From: Octopus vulgaris | Taxonomy: Eukaryota | Length of the DNA stretch: 64,000 nucleotides | Direction: 5' to 3' | NCBI GenBank assembly: GCA_951406725.2 | Contig: OX597825.1 | Span: 56,482,001-56,546,000, forward strand | Part shown: positions 16,299 through 19,488 of the stretch, one piece after another | Numbering within the stretch: the first letter of the stretch is position 1 | Layout: every line of letters starts with the position of its first letter | Notes under the pieces: generated by a model | Told to the model about the DNA's origin: nothing | What the model saw: the letters and a program-made list of their open reading frames with translations, nothing else | Database searches by the model: none | Translations under genes and position numbers: made by a program

Positions 16299-16528
16299 TT
16301 AATCAATATAGGGTGGCAAAAAAAAAATTTTGTAGAATTCTTTTGCCACCAGCGGCCTAGTAGGAAAAAAATTAAAATAGTCATAGACCATTTTTAAGTT
16401 CAACATCAACAATAAAGGAACGGCCATAATAGGCCATTCACCCACTAGAAATAACAGCCAAAGCTTCAACCGCAAATAAAAGTTAATTCAGTAAACCAGG
16501 AGAAAATTTAAAAAACATTTACCCTGTA

Positions 16529-16635
16529 ATTTCTTATACGATATACCGTTTCATCTGCTGATTAATGGTAAACTAACCTGATTAAATTAAATCAAGCCAA
16601 TCTTCCACAGGCCCTCAGATTCTTCAGTAAGAAAT
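16529..16635 (-). ncRNA. Type I hammerhead ribozyme, copy 1
   Basis: Minus strand: ATTTCTTA (stem I) CTGAAGA (core) ATCTG-[58 nt]-CAGAT (stem II) GAA ACGG-TATA-TCGT (stem III) A / TAAGAAAT (stem I). GUA cleavage triplet; predicted cut between 16537 and 16536. Confidence 0.85.
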
Positions 16636-17022
16636 AGCCCAAGACGGAACAGATATTTTCACGAGGCATTTCCGACGTTGCCAAGTTTATATCTGACCTA
16701 AAATTTTCAAATCGTCGCACTCGCGCCAAATTTATCGGCAGCAAATAAATATAAGCTGTCGATTCCATTACGGAATTAACCAGAAAATTCATAATTAATC
16801 AATATAGGGTGGCAAAAAAAAATTTTGTAGAATTCTGTTGCCACCAGCGGCCTAGTAGGAAAAAATTAAAATAGTCATAGACCATTTTTAAGTTCAACAT
16901 CAACAATAAAGGAACGGCCATAATAGGCCATTCACCCACTAGAAATAACAGCCAAAGCTTCAACCGCAAATAAAAGTTAATTCAGTAAACCAGGAGAAAA
17001 TTTAAAAAACATTTACCCTGTA

Positions 17023-17129
17023 ATTTCTTATACGATATACCGTTTCATCTGCTGATTAATGGTAAACTAACCTGATTAAATTAAATCAAGCCAATCTTCC
17101 ACAGGCCCTCAGATTCTTCAGTAAGAAAT
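17023..17129 (-). ncRNA. Type I hammerhead ribozyme, copy 2
   Basis: Same motif as copy 1. Confidence 0.85.
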
Positions 17130-17514
17130 AGCCCAAGACGGAACAGATATTTTCACGAGGCATTTCCGACGTTGCCAAGTTTATATCTGACCTAAAATTT
17201 TCAAATCGTCGCACTCGCGCCAAATTTATCGGCAGCAAATAAATATAAGCTGTCGATTCCATTACGGAATTAACCAGAAAATTCATAATTAATCAATATA
17301 GGGTGGCAAAAAAAAATTTTGTAGAATTCTTTGCCACCAGCGGCCTAGTAGGAAAAATTAAAATAGTCATAGACCATTTTTAAGTTCAACATCAACAATA
17401 AAGGAACGGCCATAATAGGCCATTCACCCACTAGAAATAACAGCCAAAGCTTCAACCGCAAATAAAAGTTAATTCAGTAAACCAGGAGAAAATTTAAAAA
17501 ACATTTACCCTGTA

Positions 17515-17621
17515 ATTTCTTATACGATATACCGTTTCATCTGCTGATTAATGGTAAACTAACCTGATTAAATTAAATCAAGCCAATCTTCCACAGGCCC
17601 TCAGATTCTTCAGTAAGAAAT
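17515..17621 (-). ncRNA. Type I hammerhead ribozyme, copy 3
   Basis: Same motif as copy 1. Confidence 0.85.
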
Positions 17622-18009
17622 AGCCCAAGACGGAACAGATATTTTCACGAGGCATTTCCGACGTTGCCAAGTTTATATCTGACCTAAAATTTTCAAATCG
17701 TCGCACTCGCGCCAAATTTATCGGCAGCAAATAAATATAAGCTGTCGATTCCATTACGGAATTAACCAGAAAATTCATAATTAATCAATATAGGGTGGCA
17801 AAAAAAAAATTTCGTAGAATTCTTTTGCCACCAGCGGCCTAGTAGGAAAAAATTAAAATAGTCATAGACCATTTTTAAGTTCAACATCAACAATAAAGGA
17901 ACGGCCATAATAGGCCATTCACCCACTAGAAATAACAGCCAAAGCTTCAACCGCAAATAAAAGTTAATTCAGTAAACCAGGAGAAAATTTAAAAAACATT
18001 TACCCTGTA

Positions 18010-18116
18010 ATTTCTTATACGATATACCGTTTCATCTGCTGATTAATGGTAAACTAACCTGATTAAATTAAATCAAGCCAATCTTCCACAGGCCCTCAGA
18101 TTCTTCAGTAAGAAAT
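18010..18116 (-). ncRNA. Type I hammerhead ribozyme, copy 4
   Basis: Same motif as copy 1. Confidence 0.85.
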
Positions 18117-18502
18117 AGCCCAAGACGGAACAGATATTTTCACGAGGCATTTCCGACGTTGCCAAGTTTATATCTGACCTAAAATTTTCAAATCGTCGCA
18201 CTCGCGCCAAATTTATCGGCAGCAAATGAATATAAGCTGTCGATTCCATTACGGAATTAACCAGAAAATTCATAATTAATCAATATAGGGTGGCAAAAAA
18301 AATTTTGTAGAATTCTTTTGCCACCAGCGGCCTAGTAGGAAAAAATTAAAATAGTCATAGACCATTTTTAAGTTCAACATCAACAATAAAGGAACGGCCA
18401 TAATAGGCCATTCACCCACTAGAAATAACAGCCAAAGCTTCAACCGCAAATAAAAGTTAATTCAGTAAACCAGGAGAAAATTTAAAAAACATTTACCCTG
18501 TA

Positions 18503-18609
18503 ATTTCTTATACGATATACCGTTTCATCTGCTGATTAATGGTAAACTAACCTGATTAAATTAAATCAAGCCAATCTTCCACAGGCCCTCAGATTCTTCA
18601 GTAAGAAAT
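18503..18609 (-). ncRNA. Type I hammerhead ribozyme, copy 5
   Basis: Same motif as copy 1. Confidence 0.85.
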
Positions 18610-19006
18610 AGCCCAAGACGGAACAGATATTTTCACGAGGCATTTCCGACGTTGCCAAGTTTATATCTGACCTAAAATTTTCAAATCGTCGCACTCGCGC
18701 CACTCGCGCCAAATTTATCGGCAGCAAATAAATATAAGCTGTCGATTCCATTACGGAATTAACCAGAAAATTCATAATTAATCAATATAGGGTGGCAAAA
18801 AAAAAATTTCGTAGAATTCTTTTGCCACCAGCGGCCTAGTAGGAAAAAATTAAAATAGTCATAGACCATTTTTAAGTTCAACATCAACAATAAAGGAACG
18901 GCCATAATAGGCCATTCACCCACTAGAAATAACAGCCAAAGCTTCAACCGCAAATAAAAGTTAATTCAGTAAACCAGGAGAAAATTTAAAAAACATTTAC
19001 CCTGTA

Positions 19007-19113
19007 ATTTCTTATACGATATACCGTTTCATCTGCTGATTAATGGTAAACTAACCTGATTAAATTAAATCAAGCCAATCTTCCACAGGCCCTCAGATTC
19101 TTCAGTAAGAAAT
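19007..19113 (-). ncRNA. Type I hammerhead ribozyme, copy 6
   Basis: Same motif as copy 1. Confidence 0.85.
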
Positions 19114-19488
19114 AGCCCAAGACGGAACAGATATTTTCACGAGGCATTTCCGACGTTGCCAAGTTTATATCTGACCTAAAATTTTCAAATCGTCGCACTC
19201 GCGCCAAATTTATCGGCAGCAAATAAATATAAGCTGTCGATTCCATTACGGAATTAACCAGAAAATTCATAATTAATCAATATAGGGTGGCAAAAAAAAT
19301 TTTGTAGAATTCTGTTGCCACCAGCGGCCTAGTAGGAAAAAATTAAAATAGTCATAGACCATTTTTAAGTTCAACATCAACAATAAAGGAACGGCGGTTG
19401 AAGCTTTGCGGTTGAAGCTTTGGCTGTTATTTCTAGTGGGTGAATGGCCTATTATGGCCGTTCCTTTATTGTTGATATATATATATAT

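Follow-up and report, generated by a model that had tools for sequence, protein, structure and literature searches.

A dispersed, non-coding hammerhead retrozyme family of Octopus vulgaris with two-armed insertions in (TA)n microsatellites and a probable Penelope-like mode of mobilisation

The window analysed in this study, a stretch of 64,000 nucleotides from Octopus vulgaris (contig OX597825.1, positions 56,482,001 to 56,546,000), contains a tandem array between positions 16298 and 19395, with a period of 495, 6.3 copies and 98% matches according to TRF. The array lies on the minus strand and consists of head-to-tail units of ~493 nt, which we number from the first base 3' of the predicted hammerhead cut (nt 1). 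This long arm has its 5' end at nt 113 and its 3' end, termed end B, at ~nt 235, where it abuts a (TA)n target microsatellite at 16183-16299 (TRF: period 2, 58.5 copies, 100%; (TA)58). Its terminal ~106 nt (16298-16404, minus strand), between nt 132 (end A) and end B at nt 235-238, form a 'tail' that is present in one arm only. The final 83 bases, 19394-19476, lie outside the tandem and constitute a short inverted arm on the plus strand, which covers monomer nt 61-132, has 14 nt duplicated at its junction and terminates 3' at the fixed end A; it is followed by the right target microsatellite, a short TA run at 19476-19491. Since 19394-19476 is inverted, both termini of the window insertion are 3' ends that face TA repeats. 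A previous description, made from the letters alone and here called the sequence-only reading, comprised six complete units and a partial seventh between (TA)n runs. The six units and the TA flanks hold, but the supposed seventh is the inverted arm and not part of the tandem.

Only short ORFs of 56-69 aa occur inside the units, and a search of the 64-kb window with a Penelope-like element (PLE) protein query gave no tblastn match, i.e. no PLE coding sequence. This agrees with the earlier statement that neither RT nor endonuclease is encoded, and the ORF with RT and GIY-YIG domains that defines an autonomous PLE is missing from the window element. One 66-aa frame recurs in every unit (e.g. 16592-16792, minus strand) and overlaps the hammerhead; it has no real Pfam match. 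Outside the array, 30 bases away, lies a palindrome of 158 bp (19521-19678) that is almost perfect and has (TA)n at its middle; Rfam gave sub-threshold miRNA-like matches only for it. Tandem copies of 173-178-bp units at 21474-21901 and 48619-48992 presumably represent a short interspersed repeat, which they resemble.

A generic type I hammerhead descriptor, applied to both strands of the 64 kb, delivered six matches, all on the minus strand and all within the array: 16529-16635, 17023-17129, 17515-17621, 18010-18116, 18503-18609 and 19007-19113. The predicted cuts follow the H17 positions 16537, 17031, 17523, 18018, 18511 and 19015, and their spacings of 494, 492, 495, 493 and 504 agree exactly with the cut positions and the five monomer lengths given in the sequence-only reading, which had also assigned a full core and three stems to the minus strand of each complete unit. 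All six hammerheads share the core CUGAAGA..GAAA..GUA with stems of 8, 5 and 3 bp for helices I, II and III, and they follow the type I plan of a CUGANGA / GAAA / NUH core and three helices, open at helix I. Helix II has 5 closing pairs and an arm of 68 nt; helix III consists of 3 pairs with a self-complementary loop III, and pair 10.1-11.1 is A-U rather than the usual G-C (cf. PMC4209133). An Rfam scan of 14000-22000 (4227 models, E<=1), a search that the sequence-only reading had proposed alongside the descriptor, returned no hammerhead, so that the motif falls outside Rfam membership; the 68-nt helix II likely accounts for this miss.

Compared with shuffled sequences, the 131-nt motif has the better fold in 200 of 200 cases (z -3.1) and the whole monomer in 100 of 100 (z -4.1). 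In isolation, the minimum free energy structure of the motif lacks stem III in cis and the active cis fold lies 3.5 kcal/mol above it, while helix III contributes -0.2 kcal/mol when it forms a hairpin and -13.6 when it forms an intermolecular duplex. The hammerhead fits the dimer-dependent type, and the predicted cleavage would likely take place as a dimer. A weak helix III and a palindromic loop are likewise described for the dimer-dependent hammerheads of newt/axolotl satellites and PLEs (PMC4209133, PMC7229834), which are thought to cut multimers and to spare monomer circles (PMC4209133). With both features present in the octopus unit, action as a dimer is predicted here as well, and monomer circles would consequently be spared. 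From the newt/axolotl hammerheads, as described in these sources, it differs in its 3 possible helix III pairs, its very long helix II and its 493-nt unit.

Stem covariation among homologues, on which the sequence-only reading had made its case depend, is present: both sides have changed in 7 of 13 pairs and 91 of 91 cells are paired, in a set of seven hammerheads from ~3 lineages and thus few independent events. In an older subfamily the closing region of helix II changed from G-C to A-U and loop III from UAUA to UGCA, the palindrome being kept. Furthermore, across the 232 units compared (63 loci), 2 changes, each confined to one unit, affect the 12 fixed core and cut positions, whereas N7, which is free to vary, differs in 26 of these units with all four bases seen. 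With a conserved core, a free N7 and covarying stems, the ribozyme looks selected at the sequence level.

The unit belongs to a young, dispersed, non-coding family. At ~99% identity at least 222 matches were found, from 39 of 803 candidates scored, and the genome contains 804 exact copies of the cut-spanning 30-mer compared to 0 for the reversed control. There are 187 exact A ends that abut (TA)n, and 968 matches to end B, which older subfamilies also have; relatives at ~90% and at 66-70% identity retain both ends. Near-identical arrays reside on more than 20 contigs with unrelated flanks. Thus, other genomic arrays with (TA)n flanks, which the sequence-only reading had suggested to look for, exist in hundreds of copies and bear out its view of a non-autonomous, (TA)n-targeted element. 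By the sequence criteria of the class, the window element is an animal non-LTR retrozyme: it comprises six tandem units (two being the minimum) each with an intact type I hammerhead, it is non-coding with a GC content of ~35% (below 45-50%), it is a member of a dispersed multi-locus family, and it has no LTR, PBS or PPT as judged from its architecture. The sequence-only reading considered the unit long for animal retrozymes; this does not hold, since families range from 51 to 972 bp (10.64898/2026.07.22.740005).

Several further observations concern the family and its relatives. Loci L055 and L056, which lie on contig 11 at a distance of 63 kb, share one insertion together with its flanks and represent a segmental or assembly duplicate. 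In one arm of L042 the poly-U tract near nt 208 becomes longer between successive units, by 1 to 14 bases. Another two-armed retrozyme family, more distantly related, was encountered at L098:7150-7600 and L121:1880-2540; its ends are similar and the helix II of its hammerhead is short. Relatives of the unit with the same loop III change occur in the sequencing runs X2, X17, X19 and X20, which are labelled as four other organisms.

What the sequence-only reading missed is that the insertions are two-armed with two fixed ends. We examined 96 loci in three sets: 36 top-scoring loci including the window (set 1, the flank-sharing duplicate L056 being dropped), 40 loci of contigs 1 and 2 chosen by means of pattern lists (set 2), and the first 20 new B-end matches on contig 1 (set 3). 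Back-to-back arms with ends A and B were found at 33 of the 36 loci in set 1 (the others being two one-armed and one aberrant), at 33 of the 40 in set 2 (six one-armed or other, one ambiguous) and at 11 of the 20 in set 3 (the rest one-armed, cut off or complex). All 77 scorable two-armed loci combine one end A with one end B, and no clear case of A+A or B+B pairing exists among the 96 loci. End A falls at nt 132 (128-137 in older copies) and end B at nt 233-242 (~238). The arms meet mostly with 1-6 nt overlap or short fillers, and the insertion targets are (TA)n microsatellites. This architecture, two 3' ends with a tail plus an inverted truncated copy in a microsatellite, is that of a PLE-mobilised insertion. 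PLEs are described to have two 3' ends with a one-sided tail, inverted truncated copies and a (TA)n bias (Craig et al. 2021, PMC8557442), and in vitro a lizard PLE nicks its target and extends both strands, with two internal start sites on the RNA that bound the tail (Frangieh et al. 2024, PMC11167929). End pairing, tail, inverted arms and (TA)n target, all recurring throughout the genome, support the PLE-type mobilisation proposed in the sequence-only reading, and very probably the element is a PLE-mobilised retrozyme.

Candidate enzymes are encoded in the same genome. At least four young autonomous PLE families have intact frames of 781, 775, 775 and 1312 aa and match RVT_1 and/or GIY-YIG (the latter searched with PF01541), the 1312-aa family by an RT fragment only. 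Each of the four possesses two 3' ends on (TA)n, 32-55 nt apart, and one-of-each head-to-head pairs were seen at 9 loci. Their tails are shorter than the 106 nt of the unit, which counts against the model. Neither blastn nor an nhmmer profile of four family members detected DNA similarity between the unit and these four autonomous families, the only strong matches being retrozyme copies nested in the TA tracts of the latter (L069, L227, L241). Homology to the pLTR of a co-resident PLE was thus not found among these four, and it is not required of all retrozymes. The autonomous families show features of their own. Members of a 775-aa family (L253:3167-3215 and relatives) carry a hammerhead-like motif with a CCGAAGA core and a palindromic GUAC helix III, located 139 and 171 nt before the two 3' ends of the family; the former distance is close to the 132 of the unit. 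The 1312-aa family (L262:2128 and 6716) is PLE-like and very young; its single frame is unusually long, its copies often form head-to-head pairs, and it has a hammerhead-like motif whose core reads CUGAUGC. In the 781-aa RT and GIY-YIG family (L097-L113), a second frame of up to 479 aa lies upstream and overlaps, and no hammerhead was found in this family.

From these data we propose a chain of events which starts with what can be read in the genome: dispersal, (TA)n targets, outward-facing A and B arms, one haplotype per locus, a conserved core and covarying stems. An array would be transcribed and its hammerheads would cut the RNA into 493-nt monomers, likely pairwise or as a dimer. A host ligase would then close the monomers into circles, as ligation by a host enzyme is reported for other retrozymes (PMC7229834). 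A borrowed PLE RT/GIY-YIG dimer would nick a (TA)n tract, and two cDNAs would be primed from both ends of the cut target at nt 132 and ~238 of one RNA, their ends finally being joined by microhomology. The six-unit array of the window would have been written by rolling round such a monomer circle. Because initiation is internal, a cut linear monomer would yield nothing more than a stub of 132+238 nt without ribozyme, and such stubs are seen; hence only circles or uncut multimers could propagate the element. Taken as a whole, this chain of a PLE-mobilised retrozyme with a self-cutting hammerhead, a circle as template and two internal start sites appears reasonably probable. A stronger version, in which the genome would record the full life cycle of the circle, with a dimer-gated cut in vivo, PLE subunits that each act on a different start site and rescue from stubs through circularisation, could equally well be right or wrong.

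The nature of the template was addressed by scoring variants with homopolymer positions masked (41 of 493). Set 1 has 17 fixed variants, present in every covering unit of their locus, and 14 of them span both arms (0.22 in 300 label shuffles), next to 73 single-unit and 10 partly shared variants. In set 2, 89 are fixed (65 across both arms), 44 single and 3 partial, with 49 unscorable; 19 of the 44 single changes are G>A, a raw count that may hint at a strand bias and is given no weight here. Differences between arms, within an arm and between loci amount to 2.8/2.5/4.7 and 2.7/3.2/18.3 per kb, so that the divergence between the arms of a locus equals that within an arm and stays below that between loci. 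The window provides an example with a G>A change at nt 273, present in all six units that cover this position and absent from the other loci of a 63-locus comparison. Since variants are fixed per locus, both arms derive from one haplotype, and as many haplotypes have passed through a bottleneck of one unit, a monomer circle would explain the pattern in one step. We thus consider a monomer circle to be the probable template of the long arrays, and the fixation of haplotypes throughout the genome supports the circular template which the sequence-only reading had suspected.

The most serious competitor retains the element and the PLE machinery and dispenses with the circle: the template would be a linear read-through multimer, either uncut or cut in part, that stems from a homogeneous parent array, and haplotypes would become fixed by occasional tandem re-amplification of DNA. 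It draws on the 13 partly shared variants (10 in set 1, 3 in set 2), two of which lie in the window (nt 194 and nt 205, each in 2 of 7 units) and for which a single circle would need recurrent error or later conversion. In addition, the two arms of L032 both end at nt 13-16 and are equal in their number of units, the lizard PLE mainly uses uncut RNA in vitro (PMC11167929), and local amplification was proposed for retrozymes by Li et al. 2026 (10.64898/2026.07.22.740005). Against it stand at least 12 haplotypes that are each fixed in a locus, several of them private (5 in set 1, 8 within set 2), including the window change at nt 273, private among 63 loci. Moreover, in set 1 no single-unit substitution recurs at the same unit index in two loci, except at the terminal nt 236, and arms reach 10 units (L149) though each round of copying truncates. 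On this evidence a linear multimer is rather unlikely to be the template.

The positions of arm starts bear on whether the hammerhead cuts. Nine short two-armed stubs, which have end A and no cut-site 30-mer, begin at nt 1-25 in 9 of 9 A arms and in 8 of 9 B arms (17 of 18 in total; p 2e-6 and 2e-7 under a uniform null). A hand count covered the A-end loci of contig 1 and those of contig 2 up to 148 Mb, with one locus lacking a B arm and one further match left out of the scoring. The B arm ends at the cut in 8 of the 9 loci in which the A arm also does so, and in 0 of the 15 in which the A arm crosses it (p 1e-5). In the B-picked set, 5 of the 10 B arms that do not cross start at nt <=28 (p 0.003). 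Judged from the sequences, the stub starts are likely the footprint of hammerhead cleavage in vivo, with both RTs running off the 5' end of one RNA. Among multi-unit arms, 10 of 69 in set 1 start near the cut (p 0.009, one being an alignment artefact) and 5 of 47 in set 2 (p 0.16); partly cut linear multimers would produce the excess of set 1 likewise. A 6-nt duplication at the cut in L046 was considered as a scar of ligation or of a circle, and rejected as it concerns one junction only.

A different explanation of the same ends would be that the hammerhead is a passive, barely active relic and that ends at nt 1-25 result from RT stalling at the three-way junction or from U/A-rich microhomology. 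Indeed, nt 17-30 are U/A-rich, and arm stops also cluster at nt 452-475, i.e. at helix II, which implies that structure can halt RT; further stops cluster at the poly-U around nt 200-215. The unit has symmetric junctions in other places too, and the cis fold is weak. Experiments on related systems urge caution too: 8 of 9 predicted Xenopus retrozyme dimers were uncleaved in vitro (Li, Clavereau and Pollet 2026, 10.64898/2026.07.22.740005), and insertion by the lizard PLE did not need cleavage (PMC11167929). What makes a relic improbable is the invariant core with its free N7, the compensatory stems, the joint stop of both arms at the cut in 8 of 9 versus 0 of 15 loci, and the fact that arms which cross the cut once usually cross it again. 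Finally, a locally amplified satellite, the remnant of an autonomous Penelope pseudo-LTR or an assembly artefact is hardly credible and largely refuted, despite the reported homology of Xenopus retrozymes to pLTRs (10.64898/2026.07.22.740005), given that near-identical arrays with unrelated flanks occupy more than 20 contigs, units differ by locus-specific changes, no homology to the four autonomous families exists, and no PLE coding sequence is joined to any of the 96 arrays, so that the linkage to a Penelope ORF that the sequence-only reading envisaged was not found.

With a PLE-mobilised retrozyme copied from a monomer circle as the preferred reading, the element can be placed among known systems. 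It resembles the metazoan non-LTR retrozymes (Cervera and de la Pena 2020; Li et al. 2026) in its non-coding tandems with one type I hammerhead per unit, its GC content of ~35%, its dispersed arrays of 2-10 units and its co-existing PLEs. It differs from them, as they are described in the available texts, in its 68-nt helix II that is missed by Rfam and in that no homologous pLTR was found, whereas 21 of 57 Xenopus retrozyme families matched PLE entries (Li et al. 2026, 10.64898/2026.07.22.740005). Two-armed (TA)n insertions, two fixed ends, per-locus haplotypes and stubs that end at the cut further set it apart. With EN+ PLEs (PMC8557442, PMC11167929) it shares tandem and inverted 5'-truncated copies, the (TA)n bias, a tail at one end, and two putative internal RT start sites downstream of the hammerhead with both strands extended. 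In contrast to these, as far as those texts describe them, the unit lacks an ORF, its tail measures ~106 nt instead of 30-40, its hammerhead has a canonical core rather than the minimal form, and its pairing of one A with one B is strict, while the PLE in vitro shows no strand preference of start site.

A tandem cDNA templated by a circle together with mobilisation by PLEs was proposed in 2020 and 2026 (PMC7229834; 10.64898/2026.07.22.740005). Thus the retrozyme class, PLE mobilisation and the circular template had already been put forward, and the value of the present family lies in its insertion footprint. The available text of PMC7229834 does not mention 'inverted', 'microsatellite', 'octopus' or 'cephalopod', and a squid genome paper counted 235 Rfam hammerheads without analysis (PMC6962438). 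In the main texts of the literature searched, we found no description of a cephalopod retrozyme family, a two-armed retrozyme insertion or a cut-ended stub.

The footprint matters since re-entry of retrozymes into the genome through a circle and a PLE enzyme is, in the sources available to us, proposed without demonstration, and the role of hammerheads in PLEs is called unclear there. A very young family now offers insertion footprints by the hundred, each informative on the exact start sites, the target and the haplotype of the template, together with cut-ended products and several intact candidate enzymes, and turns the question into a defined reconstitution experiment. If the life-cycle reading were true, it would be direct evidence that circular RNA is copied in the germ line of an animal by rolling-circle target-primed reverse transcription, and it would offer an explanation for the ribozymes and the circularisation of PLE parasites. 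RNA-templated gene insertion would likewise profit from a PLE protein able to copy non-coding circular RNA in trans into (TA)n.

In L1 twin priming, the two ends of the target prime two cDNAs and the inverted 5' part is joined by microhomology. Under the proposed model, the octopus insertions share the inverted arm, the two primed ends and the joining by microhomology with this process. They differ from it in that both putative priming sites are fixed and internal, poly(A) is absent and both arms can be multi-unit.

At the level of RNA, no run that matches the unit is recorded as RNA. Run X1, guessed to be RNA, contains a 523-letter contig that bridges the cut and has the length of a closed loop (493+30); it was not counted as a circle, because a tandem transcript or DNA gives the same and contigs cannot show circles. 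Contigs of three runs guessed to be RNA exhibit A>G changes on the hammerhead strand at 16427, 16446 and 16452 (monomer nt 110, 91 and 85), and short motifs with these changes are absent from the 96 genomic loci. The sites possibly reflect A-to-I editing of hairpin transcripts of two-armed copies.
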